Positions 1 to 6,807 are shown, counted from the stretch's first letter. The stretch: 19,866 nt of DNA from a virus (IMGVR_UViG_2579778613_000002:1-19866), one strand, 5' to 3'. The notes: a model not told the origin generated them from the letters alone. A program made the numbers and translations.

Positions 1-793
<793 letters not shown>

Positions 794-866
794 GTCGTTA
801 ATTCCTATGCGTGGTTTTACGATACCGAAGCCCTGACTGTTACCGCAGTTGGGGCTTCAACTTTCT
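794..866 (+). ncRNA. sar: sar-like small antisense RNA (about 70 nt) complementary to the ant start codon and RBS region
   Basis: Plus-strand promoter-like elements: -35 TTGATA (759-764), 17-bp spacer, -10 TATACT (782-787), predicted start near 794. Hairpin at 827-858 (GAAGCCC / GGGCTTC stem extended by ACTG/CAGT, hexaloop TTACCG) followed by a U-rich run AACTTTCTGCTCT. P22 has an antisense sar RNA of similar size at the equivalent position. Confidence 0.45.
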
Positions 867-1060
867 GCTCTATCAGTTATATCTTTCCCTTCATATACTT
901 CACCTATATTGCTAATGCTGGCAGAACATCCAAGATGCTTGTATCTTATGATGTCCAACACGCAGTCACTACACAGCATCCGACCTGTTTCTTTAGAGTA
1001 AATGTATGTTTGATCAGCGTCTGATTCGCTAATGCCGCAGAAACAACATTCTTTACTCAT
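857..1060 (-). CDS. Small Cys-rich protein (67 aa) with two CxxC motifs, putative zinc ribbon; function unknown
   Basis: ORF-track ORF. Its ATG (1060-1058) overlaps the arc stop in an ATGA arrangement, indicating translational coupling. CxxC pairs at C5/C8 and C30/C33 with a further Cys at 44. A GAGGGG SD-like element lies upstream inside arc. Confidence 0.6.
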   Translation of the reverse strand: MSKECCFCGISESDADQTYIYSKETGRMLCSDCVLDIIRYKHLGCSASISNIGEVYEGKDITDRAES

Positions 1061-1197
1061 ACCGTTATCCCCTCTCTCTTCAGGCTGTCCATCACCCGTT
1101 TAATTACTTCTGCACTAAATGAGCGACACTCTTCCTTTGCTTTCTCTTCAAGGATTTTTTCTAACTTCTCTGGCATACGCAGTGTTTTTACCTTCAT
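1057..1197 (-). CDS. arc: Arc-like ribbon-helix-helix repressor (46 aa)
   Basis: Below the ORF-track size cut-off; found by hand translation from ATG 1197-1195: MKVKTLRMPEKLEKILEEKAKEECRSFSAEVIKRVMDSLKREGITV, ending TGA 1059-1057. Pattern (beta-strand RMP, two helices, ...RVMDSLKREG) resembles P22 Arc. SD GGAGGA is 4 nt upstream of the ATG. Confidence 0.7.
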   Translation of the reverse strand: MKVKTLRMPEKLEKILEEKAKEECRSFSAEVIKRVMDSLKREGITV

Positions 1198-1302
1198 TGC
1201 ATCCTCCGTTGTATGTGGTACGCATACATAGTATTTAGGTACGCATTGATAGTCAATAGATACCTACATATCCTGTGGTAAAAAATTATTCAGGATGCGC
1301 CG
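1198..1302. promoter_or_regulatory. Divergent immI-type control region: Pant-like (minus) and Pmnt-like (plus) promoters with operator-like palindromes
   Basis: Minus-strand promoter: -35 TTGACT (complement of 1251-1256), 17-bp spacer, -10 TACTAT (complement of 1228-1233). Plus-strand promoter: -35 TTGATA (1246-1251), 17-bp spacer, -10 TATCCT (1269-1274). The two -35 hexamers overlap inside the perfect palindrome ATTGA-TAG-TCAAT (1245-1257), which is nested in a larger inverted repeat TAGGTA...TACCTA (1236-1266). Direct repeat GGTACGCAT occurs at 1217-1225 and 1238-1246, 21 bp apart. Confidence 0.55.
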
Positions 1303-1554
1303 ATGTCTGATCGTAAGTACAAAAACCCTCAAGTGAATCTGAGGCTTCCTGTAGAGATAAAGGAACGTCTTATTGAACTGGCTGAGGCTAATTCTCGTTC
1401 ATTAAATGCTGAGATGGTCGCAGCACTTGAAGCATGGACCGAAAAAAACAAACACATTCAAGCACTAGATCTTGCAACTATAGCATCGCGACTGATAGAG
1501 CTTGAGCATGATGTTGAGAAGTTAAAATGTATGCATGGCAATGGTGAAAAATGA
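1303..1554 (+). CDS. mnt: Mnt-like ribbon-helix-helix repressor (83 aa)
   Basis: ORF-track ORF. N-terminus ...NLRLPVEIKERLIELAEANSRSLNAEMVAALEAW has the RHH pattern of P22 Mnt (FNFRMPMEVREKLKFRAEANGRSMNSE...). C-terminal part looks coiled-coil like Mnt. Divergent from arc; SD AGGA at 1292-1295. Confidence 0.75.
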   Translation: MSDRKYKNPQVNLRLPVEIKERLIELAEANSRSLNAEMVAALEAWTEKNKHIQALDLATIASRLIELEHDVEKLKCMHGNGEK

Positions 1555-1868
1555 AACGTATCGCTATCCTATTGCTCCTGTGTCTCTCGAGCATAGCTAA
1601 CGCAGAAACAAAATCAGACGATAGCAGTTTTGATGAAATACAAGGCCTCATGATAGCTTCTAAAATGGCTGGTATGTGTGGTGCAATCAAACAAATGGCA
1701 ATATTCCAAGAATCTACAAACATGCCAGGTGGGAATGAATTCTTACAGAGATTCCTTACTACAGAGCAAGCAAGGCTCGGGATGACTCCGCAGCAATTTC
1801 TTGAAGCATGTCAGAAATCAATCTCTATTTATACCACCTATTACAATATGAGCTCTGAGAAAAAATAG
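1551..1868 (+). CDS. Predicted secreted (periplasmic) protein with cleavable signal peptide (105 aa); function unknown
   Basis: ORF-track ORF. Its ATG overlaps the mnt stop (ATGA), indicating translational coupling. N-terminus MKRIAILLLLCLSSIANA-ETK is a typical Sec signal peptide with an AXA cleavage site. Mature part has two Cys. Confidence 0.6.
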   Translation: MKRIAILLLLCLSSIANAETKSDDSSFDEIQGLMIASKMAGMCGAIKQMAIFQESTNMPGGNEFLQRFLTTEQARLGMTPQQFLEACQKSISIYTTYYNMSSEKK

Positions 1869-1877
1869 ACTAGGATT

Positions 1878-2063
1878 TCAACGGCTTCCGCGTCCCTGAG
1901 TAATTCTGTTGCGGATTTGCTTCTTGCGGTGGTTTAAGCTGGATAGCTTGGCTTCTGCTTCTGATATTTGCGCATCTAGATCTTTAAGCTCAAGATCTGA
2001 AAGTCGCTGGTCAAGCAGGGTTTGATTCAACTCAATGTTGTTCAAACGTTCTTCTATGGTCAT
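1878..2063 (-). CDS. Small charged coiled-coil protein (61 aa); function unknown
   Basis: ORF-track ORF. Strong SD AAGGAG is 5-6 nt upstream of the ATG (ATAAGGAGTAATC-ATG). Sequence is heptad-like and highly charged. Lies immediately downstream of the terminator at 2077-2105. Confidence 0.55.
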   Translation of the reverse strand: MTIEERLNNIELNQTLLDQRLSDLELKDLDAQISEAEAKLSSLNHRKKQIRNRITQGRGSR

Positions 2064-2107: not shown

Positions 2108-2539
2108 TTAATCTTGCTTTGTGGACGGTATAAGGGATGCGTTTGCCTCTTTTGGCTTCAAGGTATACATCCCACCATTAAATGGATCAACAGCAAGCCA
2201 ACCAATTAACCCACCAAACACAAGGTTTCCACCAATATACCAACCATTAGCATTGGCTTTGATTGGCAGGGTAACTGGTTCATACCCATCCTTCTCCATA
2301 GTGATCTGGTAGTTCTTTTTGCCAAAATAGCTACCATCTGACTTGGCGAGCGTTACACCTTGTGGGGTCCTACCTTGCGCAACAATCACACCTGACTCAT
2401 CTTTTACCTTAAAGCTCGCGCCAGAAGGATTGCTGTTCACTTGCACAAGTTGCGTTTCATCACCAACAATAGTTGCGCACCCAGATAACATCATAGCGCC
2501 AGCAACGACGCCAATAATCCTCTTCATATCAATTTCCAT
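2108..2539 (-). CDS. Predicted lipoprotein (PEGA-like beta region plus glycine-zipper hydrophobic segment); candidate moron/superinfection-exclusion protein
   Basis: ORF-track ORF. Signal peptide with lipobox: MKRIIGVVAGAMMLSG-C. The true start is probably the ATG at 2527 (MKRIIG...). Middle region (VQVNSNPSGASFKVKDESG...GRTPQGV...KDGYEPV) fits the PEGA-type pattern; C-terminal GWYIGGNLVFGGLIGWLAV is a glycine-zipper-like hydrophobic stretch. Own terminator downstream. Confidence 0.65.
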   Translation of the reverse strand: MEIDMKRIIGVVAGAMMLSGCATIVGDETQLVQVNSNPSGASFKVKDESGVIVAQGRTPQGVTLAKSDGSYFGKKNYQITMEKDGYEPVTLPIKANANGWYIGGNLVFGGLIGWLAVDPFNGGMYTLKPKEANASLIPSTKQD

Positions 2540-2644: not shown

Positions 2645-2833
2645 GTGAAGAAAAAATTTGTAAACGTTGCAAAGTGCGCAATTTTTATATTTTTTATGAC
2701 CTTTTACGGATTTAGTGCCGGAGAAGGTTTCGATCGTGATGCCAATGCATTCAGTTTCTTTTGTCTGTCTATAGTGGTCATAATTGTATGGGTGGAATTA
2801 AAGCAAACATTGTTTCATGTGCTAAGGAAATAA
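2645..2833 (+). CDS. Small hydrophobic membrane protein (62 aa, two predicted TM helices); function unknown
   Basis: ORF-track ORF with GTG start preceded by a strong SD AAGGAGGT (2633-2640). Two hydrophobic stretches (AIFIFFMTFYGF and FFCLSIVVIIVWV). Visibly AT-rich. Convergent with gp16; no convincing promoter found. Confidence 0.5.
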   Translation: MKKKFVNVAKCAIFIFFMTFYGFSAGEGFDRDANAFSFFCLSIVVIIVWVELKQTLFHVLRK

Positions 2834-2850
2834 CCATCCATGGCATTTAG

Positions 2851-4692
2851 TCACTGCTGTGTTGCCTCAGTGGCAAGCAGCGGTCTGATGGCATTTGCAG
2901 CGTTACTTAATGCTCTTTCATAGGCTGGCGTTCCTGCTTTGGTGTTTGCCAGACGTAAGAGCGCATTCCTTGCTGCTTTGGACTCATACAAGCGCATCAT
3001 TGCACCGAAACCAGCCTCAAGCCCCATTGATACGCCAAGAGTCGCAGTTGCGCCAATCGTCCTTATCCTGTTGGCTTGCGATTGCCCCGTCTGAGTTACT
3101 ACATTTGCGGTGTCTGACCTTGCTGTTTGCTGTAGAACTTCATGAAGAGCATCAAGCTCTTTCATGTGCTTTCCAGAAAAAATAGTGTTGTAAATTTCAC
3201 CACCTGACTGAGATTTCAGCTTATTAACTTCAGTGATGAACTTGGCTGGAGAGTCACCGGCCTTTTCCGCTATTTTGCTGACGTAAGCTGCACGCATAGC
3301 ATCTTTCCCTTTATCATCCAGTGCGCTCCAGATTCGTTTCACGTCAGATGGTTTTCTGCTTAATACAACGGTATTTATAAGTTCAGGACTGGCTTCACTG
3401 CTTGCCTTGTTGAGCTTGTTGGCAATGTTTTTATTAAGCACCTTATTATAAACGTTTGCATAATCGGAATTTGCTTTAAGGTATTTTGCTGCGTCTGATG
3501 CACCGAGGTTTTTAGCAACTGCGTTACGAAGGTCTTTTGACATTGCATTCTCTACCATATTGGTAGCTGCTTTTGCCTGGTTGGGGAAGACCATAGCATC
3601 TCCCTGAACATTAGATCTAAATGCTGTTCTGTGCTGACGCAAGAGATCAAACGTAACATCCAAATCAGTTGCAGGGTTTGCTAATTCTTCACGTAGGTTA
3701 CGCAAGGATGTAAGCAGGCTTTGATTGGCAGACGTCCCAAGCCGTTCCTGTCTTGCGATCGCTGTATTCAGAGCATTCATGGTATTTGTGGTATCAACTG
3801 CGGCATTACCCATTTTATTGGTGACGTCATTGATAACAGCGCCAGCGGCATCCTTCCGCCCCCTTAACGTGGTGGTAAGAGATTTCACCACATCATCAGG
3901 GTTGTACTCACCAAAACGGTCAAAATAATTGCTTACCAGCTTACTACGCGTTGCATATTGCTCAGCTCGCTTTGAGCCTGTCCCGAGCAAAGCCCCCTCA
4001 GCATCCTGAGTAAGTCCGCGAGTGAAAGCATTTTTCGGCGGGATAACATCAGATGTCATTGGTGTCACGCCCATCGATTCTGATGTGGCAATTTTCTTCG
4101 CCACTTCTGGCGCAATATCACCTTTTATAGCCGTTATTCCACGCCCTATTCCCTTTGCTGCTGCGGAAAGAACACCCTGAGCGGCAAGGTTAACTCCGGC
4201 ATTTTTAGCTGCATTTTGTGCGAAATCGCCTTTCTGATTTGCGGCCTCTGCCAGTGATCCAATAGCCATGCTTCCTGCCGTTCCAACTCCTGGAACTAAA
4301 TACCCGCCAATTGTTTCTCCAGCTTGCGCATAAGGGTCTGTCGGTCGCTCGACAGGGCGATAAACATCATCCAAAACCTTGGGGCCGCCAAGCCCCTGGC
4401 TGATTGCATTAATCAGACTTGCGCCACCCTGCAATACGTCAAATGGTATGTTTACCAGACCACGACCAGCCTGTTCTGCAATTTGCCCTGCACTTTTACC
4501 ACCTGTGAGCCAATCACCAGCTTGTTGCATCAATGATGGTTCTTCCCGTGTTGGTGCATTATTGGCCTGATTAACTGTTTGTTGCTGAACAGCCTGACCA
4601 GCAAAATACTCATCAATGGCGGTGCCAATATCTTCGGTGCTCGTACCATCAGGAAAGGTAAATGTCTTACCGTTTGCAGTTACTTTCATCAT
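2851..4692 (-). CDS. gp16: Ejection (DNA transfer) protein, P22 gp16 homolog (613 aa)
   Basis: ORF-track ORF. Size and position (last gene of the late operon, after gp20) match P22 gene 16. Gly/Ala/Gln-rich composition typical of ejection proteins. Start overlaps the gp20 stop. Confidence 0.8.
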
Positions 4693-6104
4693 TCCACCGT
4701 AAATTGAATGCCTGATTTTGAGGTATATGACCCAACCTGATTCCGTGGTTCTCCTGAAGGTGTCGAATCTTGTGCTGGCGCTGCGTCAGTATTCATTGAC
4801 ATATACCGCTTAACGGCACTCCCCAATGATTCACCTTTTTTAACATCCAACCCCAATATCTGACCGCCATTACGCGATTGTCCTGGATTGCCATTCGCGC
4901 TCATCCACTCGGCTTTAAACTCATTAAACTGCGCGTTTCGTCGCTCAAGGTTTGCCATCGCATCAAGCCATCTTGCGACCGTCTCAGGGTTATCCATGTC
5001 AGTTGGTGCACCCTGCCGAACGATCTCAACGTCTTTATCCGTTGCGGGGCCGGGAGGTAGGAATTTAAGAACCTGACTGTTAACAAGGGCATTTTGGCGG
5101 ATGCGCAAATCACGCAATGTTGTATCGCTTCCGGTAAGTTTTGCGAACATGTTCTGTGCGTTACCGAACAAACCTGTCGTTGGTTTTTCTGCTCTGAACT
5201 GTTGAGCAAGCGCACTCATGGAATTGGCTGAGTTTGATGATGCTGTAGCATTGTTTACAGCCGTCTCGATGCCTTTTTCCATGTTTACTGACAGCTTAGG
5301 TGCTTCGCTAATCAACTGCTGAGCCTTTTCCTGTGCTTGCTGCATCTTAAACCCGAACTCTTGCTGATCCAGAGCCAAGCGTTGTGCTGCGATATTGTGT
5401 CCAGTCATTGCTGACTGATAGGAAAGGTTTTGCCCTCTCGCCTGAAGTGCTTCTCCAGCCTGATTGCTGCGGATTGTCTCTGCAAGTTTGCCTCGGTCAA
5501 TTTCACGACCAGCCATCTTGTCCTGAACAGCAAACGCCTTTTCTGGTCCAAGCGCACCGAGAGACATAGTAGTCAACATGTGTGATAGCTGCTCTGGATT
5601 ATGGATACCTGTCTGAATCATCCAGTCAGCATTCGCCCCCACGCGATTTAACCTGTCCTTGTTGTCAGTAATGAATTTACTGTAGGCTTCCGGTCCCTGA
5701 GAAAGAGCGACGTTAGCCCTTATGGCTAAATCGCCCATATCGTTGCGTTGCTGATCATTAAGACCGGAAAACGCCTGTTGTGCCTGTGCAACAAACGCTG
5801 GATTTTCCTGGGCAAACTTAAATAGTCCCGATGGATCACCAGAAGCCCATGCATCAGCGTGAACCTTATTGAACGCACTAATCGCTTTCTGTTGCTGTTC
5901 CTGATTGTAAATATCAGCAACTCCAGCCAGACCACGTAACGCGGTCAGACCAACGTTATTTGCACCTGAGCGAGCCAGTTCATTGTTTTCGCGGATCAGA
6001 CCAAGCGTTGCGTTAATGTCGCTTGCCTTTGGCGCATTCTCATTTTGCGTACCGATGCCAGCCAGAAAACCACCAGAATTAATACCCTGTTGCCACGTAG
6101 CCAT
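4689..6104 (-). CDS. gp20: Ejection protein, P22 gp20 homolog (471 aa)
   Basis: ORF-track ORF. Length and position between gp7 and gp16 match P22 gene 20. Confidence 0.8.
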
Positions 6105-6114
6105 TGATTACTCC

Positions 6115-6807
6115 TTAAAACAACGAGCCAAGCAGACCAAGACCGCCGCCGATCGCAGCCCCCCACGGAGTTGATGAACCAATTAATTTCGCAAGTCCGG
6201 CCCCAGCAATAGCACCAGACGCACCTCCGCCAATAGCAGATTGCATTGCTGATGGTCTGTTGGCATTTGCCGCTGCAAGAGCCGCACTTTGCTGCGAAAT
6301 CTGACTCATGTTGTTGGCATATGTCTGCCCGGCGTTTGCCTGACCTTGCAGTGCGCCAAGACCAATATTTGCCAGATTCTGGTAGTTGTTCATCTGACCA
6401 GATAGCCATTGCTGACCAAGCGTTGGTGCGATTGTTGCTAACTGATTACTGGTTGCGGTGGAACCCAATCCACCTGTTGCTTCCGCTGCCGCCAGACTCT
6501 GATAGCGAGCCTGACCAGCAAGATCTTTGTACTGCTGAGAGTTGTAATACTGGTTAAGCGCCTGACCTTGCCCCTCCAGAGACGATAAGTTTTCGAGGCT
6601 TCCGACATACTTATCAGCCAGAGGAGTAAACGGCTTCAGGTTGTTCATGATGGTGTTGAACTGCTGATTTTGCAGGTCTGCTGCATACTTCTGAGCTTCT
6701 GCGGCATACTTTGCGCTTTTATCAGAACTGCCACCTTTCCCACCCTTTTCAGGGCAATAAGGTTCCTCGCCGCGCAGTTTTCTGCCCAGCTTAAATGCAT
6801 ATAACAT
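6115..6807 (-). CDS. gp7: Ejection protein, P22 gp7 homolog (230 aa)
   Basis: ORF-track ORF. N-terminus MLYAFKLGRKLRGEEPYCPEKGGKGGSSDK... and the Gly-rich C-terminal tail match P22 gp7 as I recall it (229 aa). Confidence 0.8.
   Translation of the reverse strand: MLYAFKLGRKLRGEEPYCPEKGGKGGSSDKSAKYAAEAQKYAADLQNQQFNTIMNNLKPFTPLADKYVGSLENLSSLEGQGQALNQYYNSQQYKDLAGQARYQSLAAAEATGGLGSTATSNQLATIAPTLGQQWLSGQMNNYQNLANIGLGALQGQANAGQTYANNMSQISQQSAALAAANANRPSAMQSAIGGGASGAIAGAGLAKLIGSSTPWGAAIGGGLGLLGSLF

Follow-up and report, generated by a model that had tools for sequence, protein, structure and literature searches.

A small gene for a predicted periplasmic protein coupled to the mnt repressor gene of P22-like prophages

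ORF105 and its place behind mnt

We analysed a 19,866-nucleotide stretch of viral DNA (IMGVR_UViG_2579778613_000002:1-19866; the window hereafter) corresponding to the end of a P22-like (Lederbergvirus-type) phage or prophage that holds the late genes and immI. Near its left end, mnt (1303-1554, plus strand) encodes an 83-amino-acid Arc/Mnt-type ribbon-helix-helix repressor (Pfam Arc, E=3e-10); the gene is 96.8% identical in nucleotide sequence to the CUS-3 segment annotated as mnt, and this allele is present in 147 of 5426 complete Escherichia coli genomes. Immediately behind it lies the subject of this report, a 105-amino-acid open reading frame (ORF) that we call ORF105 (1551-1868, plus strand). 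A sequence-only reading of the window had singled out ORF105 as an exported protein coupled to mnt, and had placed its start codon on the mnt stop codon. This is the arrangement that we find: the ORF105 ATG (1551-1553) overlaps the mnt TGA (1552-1554) in a four-nucleotide ATGA at 1551-1554.

Three nucleotides upstream of this ATG, and inside mnt, is a Shine-Dalgarno-like element, GGTGA (1543-1547), complementary to UCACC at the 3' end of 16S rRNA. The element is part of a conserved junction formed by the last 37 nucleotides of mnt (1514-1550, plus strand), which ends at the ATGA. The junction pattern, ATG[C/T]ATGG.AA.G.TG.AAAATGA, is retained even with mnt alleles whose products are 29-35% identical to the Mnt of the window. 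All 21 IMG/VR loci carrying the 100%- and 72%-identity classes of ORF105 have the ATGA overlap, with Mnt proteins that are 96-100%, 35%, 30% or 29% identical to that of the window, and locus L027 encodes a P22-type Mnt (82% identical to P22 Mnt) yet has the same junction; at least four different mnt alleles are joined to ORF105 in this way. Among the complete E. coli genomes, 54 of 5426 (approximately 1%) carry the ORF105 gene, including the O104:H4 outbreak lineage, in which a variant of 76% nucleotide identity is followed by a different lipoprotein. An Arc-family (mnt) gene underlies the match in all 40 of the records listed for these 54 genomes. The physical coupling is thus shared by several unrelated mnt alleles, and the ATGA overlap, the ribosome-binding site within the upstream gene and the conservation of both in relatives are the features by which a translationally coupled pair is predicted.

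ORF105 is a genuine, selected gene, well beyond what chance would leave. It matches phrog_19844 from end to end (E=1.1e-69, 232.5 bits, residues 1-105 on profile positions 1-105 of 105), and the identical protein is encoded on at least 1000 public contigs, assigned to E. coli or Salmonella wherever a host is named. Compared with the O104:H4 variant, the core ratio of nonsynonymous to synonymous substitution (dN/dS) is 0.09 at a synonymous divergence (dS) of about 1, indicating strong purifying selection.

BLAST comparison of L027 with P22 and with the window delimits the segment in which ORF105 travels. In L027 a cassette is inserted between a P22-like mnt and a point 11 nucleotides before the P22 mnt stop codon, and is followed by orf59a. 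Homology between this cassette and the window begins at 1514 and ends exactly at the start codon of a 61-amino-acid coiled-coil ORF (1878-2063, minus strand; phrog_7586, function unknown), so that the cassette corresponds to 550 bp (1514-2063) comprising the last 37 nucleotides of mnt, ORF105 and the 61-amino-acid ORF. The latter is convergent with ORF105, lies 9 nucleotides from its stop codon and, in the 100%-identity class, accompanies it in every viral locus (11 of 11). Near the homologue of the type seen in phage Kapi1, the 61-amino-acid ORF is found at 8 of 11 loci, whereas the 72% (O104:H4) class lacks it; its matches are weak and XhlA/DUF3847-like.

Just beyond the cassette is an orphaned ancestral mnt 3' end, AAAAAACCCACCTGA (2077-2101), which contains the KKPT-stop codons and aligns with the mnt 3' ends of epsilon34 and P22. 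It coincides with a bidirectional hairpin terminator (2080-2101) detected by a terminator scan, and the homologous site in epsilon34 is annotated as Rho-independent. From these alignments, the orphan mnt end and its terminator are what the cassette insertion left behind, and the terminator is probably where the mnt-ORF105 transcript ends. Together with the cassette boundaries, these downstream remnants place the cassette inside the mnt transcription unit, in the order Pmnt, mnt with a replaced C-terminus, ORF105, the antisense of the 61-amino-acid ORF and the old mnt terminator. The putative Pmnt is a sigma-70 promoter-like site, TTGATA-17-TATCCT (1246-1274, plus strand), overlapped by a divergent Pant-like site (1256-1228, minus strand). 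Both are consensus matches only, and their overlapping arrangement between mnt and arc agrees with the annotated Pmnt/Pant pair of P22. No promoter-like site was found on the plus strand between 1303 and 1551, and ORF105 would thus be served by the promoter of mnt and by its ancestral terminator.

As in a moron, the insertion is present or absent between syntenic relatives: the site occurs without ORF105 in CUS-3, epsilon34, Gally and P22. Its accessory nature shows in the E. coli counts as well, with 54 genomes carrying the gene against 147 carrying this mnt allele. ORF105 does not have a promoter and terminator of its own, and it is operon-embedded cargo rather than a self-contained moron. 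Other cargo occupies the same slot in CUS-3 and Kapi1. The conserved mnt 3' junction, ATGTATGGTAAGGATGCAAAATGA, is present in Kapi1 (L001, 3285-3310) and in L029, and in Kapi1 it is followed by an unrelated 69-amino-acid ORF, Kapi1_062, which is also ATGA-coupled. The ORF105 homologue of that phage, Kapi1_059 (47% identity), instead lies approximately 0.6 kb past the mnt stop codon, on the same strand and behind its own AAGGAGG. The same junction joined to a different coupled ORF marks the mnt 3' end as a reusable socket for cargo.

Cargo behind mnt is an architecture already known from the 'ant moron', the name given in the literature to the hypervariable region between gene 16 and the tailspike gene, which in the window lies to the left of gp16 (PMC2629481). 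The mapping of the cassette and its junction is a small new anatomical result. The nearest known counterpart is P22 orf59a, which, like the cargo genes hkcB/hkcC of HK620, CUS-3 and epsilon34, occupies the slot of ORF105 between immI and gene 16. Like ORF105, orf59a comes next after mnt and shares its strand, precedes the annotated mnt terminator and varies among relatives (PMC2629481). Unlike ORF105, which is predicted to be exported and is ATGA-coupled, orf59a encodes 59 amino acids without a signal peptide, begins about 100 nucleotides from mnt and has no sequence similarity to ORF105. Both can be present at once, as in L027, where the ORF105 cassette sits between mnt and orf59a.

A broad family of predicted periplasmic proteins

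The N-terminus of ORF105 has the sequence properties of a Sec signal peptide cleaved by signal peptidase I. It is predicted to span residues 1-18, MKRIAILLLLCLSSIANA (1551-1604, plus strand), with cleavage after ANA and before ETK, and it consists of a K/R-containing n-region (MKR), a hydrophobic core (IAILLLLCLSSI) and an A-x-A site (ANA followed by E). The best hydrophobic 10-mer has a mean Kyte-Doolittle value of 3.15, and beyond the signal peptide no further hydrophobic segment was found. A lipobox of the form [LVI][ASTVI][GAS]C, as would mark a lipoprotein processed by signal peptidase II, is absent at the end of the hydrophobic region; C11, a third cysteine that falls within the signal peptide, is preceded by L-L-L, has no small residue at -1 and is not conserved in homologues. 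Across the family the features of export are kept though the N-terminal sequence is not conserved: 125 of 130 members have a hydrophobic N-terminal 10-mer (mean Kyte-Doolittle value of at least 2), and in 123 of 130 it is preceded by K or R. For the homologue Kapi1_059, a DeepTMHMM note by the depositors likewise gives residues 1-22 as a signal peptide.

The mature domain (1605-1868, plus strand, including the stop codon) would comprise 87 amino acids with an isoelectric point of about 5 and two cysteines, C43 (1677-1679) and C87 (1809-1811). A Sec signal peptide and two cysteines in the mature part had been the core of the initial description, and both survive closer inspection, the cysteines being conserved and export being predicted.

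A profile search of a representative library of 1.8 billion proteins recovered 257 clusters (50% identity) at E<=1e-3, distributed across Proteobacteria. Members are approximately 100 amino acids long and share the motif AK..G.CG..Q...FQ..TKMPGGDEF..RF..TEaaRLG...C, in which a variable acidic linker precedes the conserved block, followed by the second cysteine and a tyrosine. In an alignment of 86 sequences that are 29-51% identical to ORF105, C43, F52, E72 and R75 are invariant (86/86) and C87 is present in 85 of 86. The conserved positions of the helix 1-loop-helix 2 region are K38, G41, C43, G44, Q48, F52, Q53, T56, G60, G61, F64, R67, F68, E72, R75 and G77. An AlphaFold2 model of the mature part, built from a 53-sequence alignment, predicts a three-helix bundle (mature residues 6-38, 43-58 and 62-85) with a predicted local distance difference test score (pLDDT) of 85.4. 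Conservation is concentrated on helix 1, the PGG loop and helix 2, while helix 3 contributes only C87 and Y94. This pattern of conservation, placed on the predicted helices, suggests a C43-C87 disulfide that would join helices 1 and 3.

The statement that ORF105 belongs to no known family also stands up to database searches. Pfam and NCBIfam scans of ORF105 and the 86 family members returned nothing consistent, PADLOC-DB returned no defence family for ORF105 at E<=1, a sequence-profile search of the PDB gave no match (best E=0.57) and a fold search of BFVD gave no relative. ORF105 is a full-length member of phrog_19844, which has no annotated function and so names the family without explaining it. 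In the source databases all members are called 'hypothetical protein' save one, a 'Periplasmic protein', and no papers were found under the accession numbers or the PHROG identifier. The only domain fusions seen among members were tandem duplications and start-site extensions, with no other domains attached.

Homologues, sought in part by a genome scan with a 19-sequence alignment, lie in many other settings. In a different, Yersinia-type phage (L047) the homologue lies 90 nucleotides downstream of a gene for a 142-amino-acid Mnt-like protein; in L049 a Mu-like baseplate cluster contains it, on the opposite strand; in L064, another P22-like phage, it is beside gp16; and in L050 and L066 it is in the early region. 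On genomic islands, homologues adjoin integrases, a resolvase, a primase or YqaJ, in hosts that include Pseudomonas, Oceanospirillales, Methylophaga, Chromatiaceae, Nitrosomonas, a Pseudobdellovibrionaceae metagenome-assembled genome and Pseudooceanicola. Stand-alone members are often on the strand opposite the late genes or next to integrases, and no homologue was found on plasmids. By their genomic placement, the family's genes are stand-alone cargo of temperate phages and integrative islands in Proteobacteria.

No conserved partner gene emerged from an all-versus-all BLAST of the neighbours in 13 genome loci or from inspection of 7 metagenome loci. Neighbours seen at single loci, and not recurrently, include an LRAT-like protein, an Excalibur-domain protein and a two-component system. 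The first of these, an LRAT/NlpC-P60-like protein (Pfam LRAT, E=3e-9) encoded immediately downstream of the family member at a prophage-like locus of Pseudomonas monachiensis (L007, 6699-7280, plus strand), is the only neighbour that hints at a link to cell-wall enzymes.

Neighbouring genes of the window

To the right of the ORF105 region, the minus strand encodes terminase, portal, coat, gp10, needle, gp14 and the ejection proteins, the last from the genes for gp7 (6115-6807), gp20 (4689-6104) and gp16 (2851-4692). Adjoining gene 16 is a 62-amino-acid ORF (2645-2833, plus strand; phrog_21338, function unknown) with two hydrophobic, potentially transmembrane segments, which is also present in some other ORF105-bearing loci (L026, L033). 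Between it and the cassette lies a gene for a 143-amino-acid lipoprotein (2108-2539, minus strand; phrog_6823), a homologue of epsilon34 gene 15 with a weak, sub-threshold PEGA-domain match (18.1 bits against a cut-off of 20.8 bits). With its own promoter-like site (2586-2558) and terminator (2101-2080), this gene fits the textbook pattern of a self-contained moron and lies on the late-operon strand. A megablast match to phage Gally spans the lipoprotein region, adjoining a Gally gene annotated as the Mnt repressor.

To the left of mnt, and divergent from it, is arc (1057-1197, minus strand), followed by a 67-amino-acid cysteine-rich ORF (857-1060, minus strand; CCFC...CSDC, zinc-ribbon-like; phrog_7150, function unknown) and by ant, the antirepressor gene, which begins near position 793 and continues past the left end of the window (1-793, minus strand). 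The ant gene is 97-99% identical to 'phage antirepressor' genes of the best-matching E. coli genomes. In P22 the interval between arc and ant is a 68-nucleotide gap only, containing the 3' end of the antisense sar gene. The cysteine-rich ORF overlaps the end of arc in an ATGA. With arc coupled in this way as well, both immI repressor genes carry a passenger ORF at a stop/start overlap.

Possible roles of ORF105 in the lysogen

From its place in the mnt unit, ORF105 is probably expressed in lysogens. The sequence-only reading had gone further and proposed constitutive expression, a view that derives from the P22 paradigm and from the expectation of the epsilon34 authors for mnt (PMC2629481). 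The anatomy supports an accessory gene that would be expressed with Mnt and exported, but RNA sequencing of related prophages is mixed and constitutive expression is not assured: no mnt expression was detected in lysogens of Kapi1 (PMC12922286), while macrophages induced the mnt of prophage Gally 40-fold relative to LB culture and the five rightmost Gally genes of strain LF82, mnt included, 6-40-fold (PMC9928086).

We consider it an even chance that ORF105 is accessory cargo of the mnt unit whose product is an exported periplasmic binder that benefits or protects the lysogen. In such a mechanism, ORF105 would be transcribed from Pmnt and translated together with Mnt, and would therefore be made whenever the prophage makes Mnt. 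The product would be exported by Sec, cleaved after ANA and closed by a C43-C87 disulfide from helix 1 to helix 3, and, as a soluble periplasmic protein, would act alone. The invariant polar face of its helix 1-loop-helix 2 hairpin (K38, Q48, Q53, T56, the PGG loop, R67, E72 and R75) may bind a periplasmic or envelope target. The occurrence of the family on many phage types and islands, with no partner, under purifying selection and with invariant polar residues, points to a target conserved across Proteobacteria and not to the ejection proteins of one phage group. The outcome would be an envelope-level benefit to the lysogen, most likely protection.

Several observations weigh against this proposal, the mixed mnt transcription data among them. 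Homology, fold matches and gene neighbours give no pointer to a target, so that a protective binder is argued from context only. The disulfide and the binding face rest on conservation and on an AlphaFold model, and the signal peptide was judged by heuristics and by the DeepTMHMM note on a homologue. At the transcript level, no plus-strand terminator was found directly after ORF105, and the convergent 61-amino-acid gene implies antisense overlap with any mnt-ORF105 read-through transcript.

Among more specific explanations, the one that fares best, though unlikely in itself, is that ORF105 is a periplasmic inhibitor or orphan immunity protein directed against incoming enzymes that degrade the wall or envelope, with its PGG(D/N)EF loop plugging a conserved active site. 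Candidate targets would be lysozymes and lytic transglycosylases (including virion-borne ones), amidase or muramidase effectors of type VI secretion systems (T6SS), and bacteriocins. There are precedents for such proteins. Lysozyme inhibitors (Ivy, PliC/MliC, PliG) and T4 Sp are small envelope proteins with signal peptides in which a conserved loop neutralises an incoming peptidoglycan hydrolase; T4 Sp inhibits the gp5 lysozyme, and conserved loops are used by Ivy, PliC and MliC. T6SS immunity proteins of the Rap1a/Tai4 type are all-helical, disulfide-containing periplasmic proteins of about 100 amino acids that can occur as orphans. If the target were an enzyme whose fold is conserved across Proteobacteria, this would explain both the invariant motif and the family's wide range of hosts, and ORF105 is a partner-less, single-gene cargo of mobile elements with a small, soluble and probably disulfide-stabilised product, as predicted. 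The LRAT/NlpC-P60-like neighbour in P. monachiensis would fit as well, but it is one case, and there is no recurrent linkage to effectors or T6SS genes. Neither Pfam/NCBIfam scans nor fold searches nor effector adjacency placed ORF105 among the lysozyme inhibitors (Ivy, PliC/MliC, PliG) or the Rap1a/Tai4 and Tsi families.

Somewhat less probable is superinfection exclusion in the narrow sense, in which ORF105, as a soluble analogue of P22 SieA, would block entry of P22-like DNA in the periplasm, perhaps by binding the ejection conduit (gp7, gp20, gp16). ORF105 occupies the interval between mnt and gene 16 where P22 has orf59a and sieA, the ejection genes adjoin it (2851-6807), and its predicted location is the compartment in which the gp20 tube assembles (PMC10461980). 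SieA too is the product of a prophage gene of this interval and acts at the envelope, against gp16 and gp20, which work in the periplasm and inner membrane (PMC10461980). A tblastn search with SieA of the P22 type only found nothing in the window or in any ORF105-bearing locus, which would leave the role vacant; however, the three SieA types share less than 30% identity with one another, and BLAST with the P22 protein could miss the other types. SieA is, moreover, a polytopic inner-membrane protein of 162-164 amino acids expressed from its own promoter, whereas ORF105 is predicted to be small, soluble and exported, and its family reaches far beyond P22-like phages. Members are found in a Mu-like baseplate cluster, in other phage types and on islands of distant Proteobacteria, which lack P22-type ejection proteins, the hosts of integrase-bearing islands extending to Beta- and Alphaproteobacteria and Bdellovibrio-like bacteria. 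ORF105 is also paired with gp16 types that are anywhere from 34 to 98% identical to the gp16 of the window, purifying selection and invariant polar residues are unlike the surface expected of an arms race, and protection against Kapi1 is not complete in Kapi1 lysogens, whose prophage has a homologue (PMC11773190). On the sequence comparisons, the breadth and conservation of the family lead us to lean against a phage-specific blocker.

A further alternative, to which we assign a slightly lower probability again, is a host-physiology factor, for instance a periplasmic binder of small molecules or metals, or a stress or chaperone-like protein, kept by the same logic as prophage sodC or bor. Purifying selection and the invariant K, R, E, Q, T and Y residues resemble a ligand site more than a fast-evolving protein interface, and the hosts include the free-living Nitrosomonas, Methylophaga and Chromatiaceae. 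The induction of the Gally mnt region in macrophages suggests, too, that mnt units can respond to conditions (PMC9928086). On the other hand, ORF105 has no similarity to Spy/CpxP, HdeA or metal-binding families and no metal-type motifs (CxxC, histidine clusters), and the family is almost exclusively on mobile elements.

Strongly disfavoured, and essentially excluded, is the view that ORF105 has no function as a protein, being a chance or decaying frame or a translated spacer that only tunes mnt expression: the protein itself is known from sequence alone, and the coupling of a different ORF at the same junction in Kapi1 means that the slot itself may matter, but 257 clusters sharing a conserved motif, the dN/dS of 0.09, the recurrence of the exact protein on at least 1000 contigs and the homologues far from any mnt gene all speak for a working product.

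A more ambitious version of the protective-binder proposal, which we regard as doubtful, is that the family represents a new class of periplasmic proteins, soluble and disulfide-stabilised, that temperate phages and integrative islands carry across Proteobacteria and that protect by neutralising a conserved step of envelope penetration, giving broad exclusion and not exclusion of one phage. One candidate for this step is a peptidoglycan hydrolase, either virion-borne or an effector, or some other conserved component of the periplasm on which incoming phages or toxins rely. In P22-like prophages, the portable ATGA-coupled cassette would tie such a protein to Mnt.

At present ORF105 is a well-documented gene of an uncharacterised, broad family, in a slot known for such genes, and the case for it would rise sharply with a phenotype of broad envelope-level protection. 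The examples of superinfection exclusion known to us are membrane proteins and lipoproteins; should ORF105 protect lysogens at the envelope, superinfection exclusion in Gram-negative bacteria would gain a mechanism based on a soluble periplasmic protein. Such a role would also give a function to a family that lacks a Pfam model and has members in approximately 1% of the complete E. coli genomes, those of the O104:H4 lineage among them. Whatever the function, the cassette shows how cargo plugs into the 3' end of a repressor gene: a short conserved junction recreates the C-terminus of the repressor, the ribosome-binding site and the ATGA overlap, providing a compact case of modular phage evolution.
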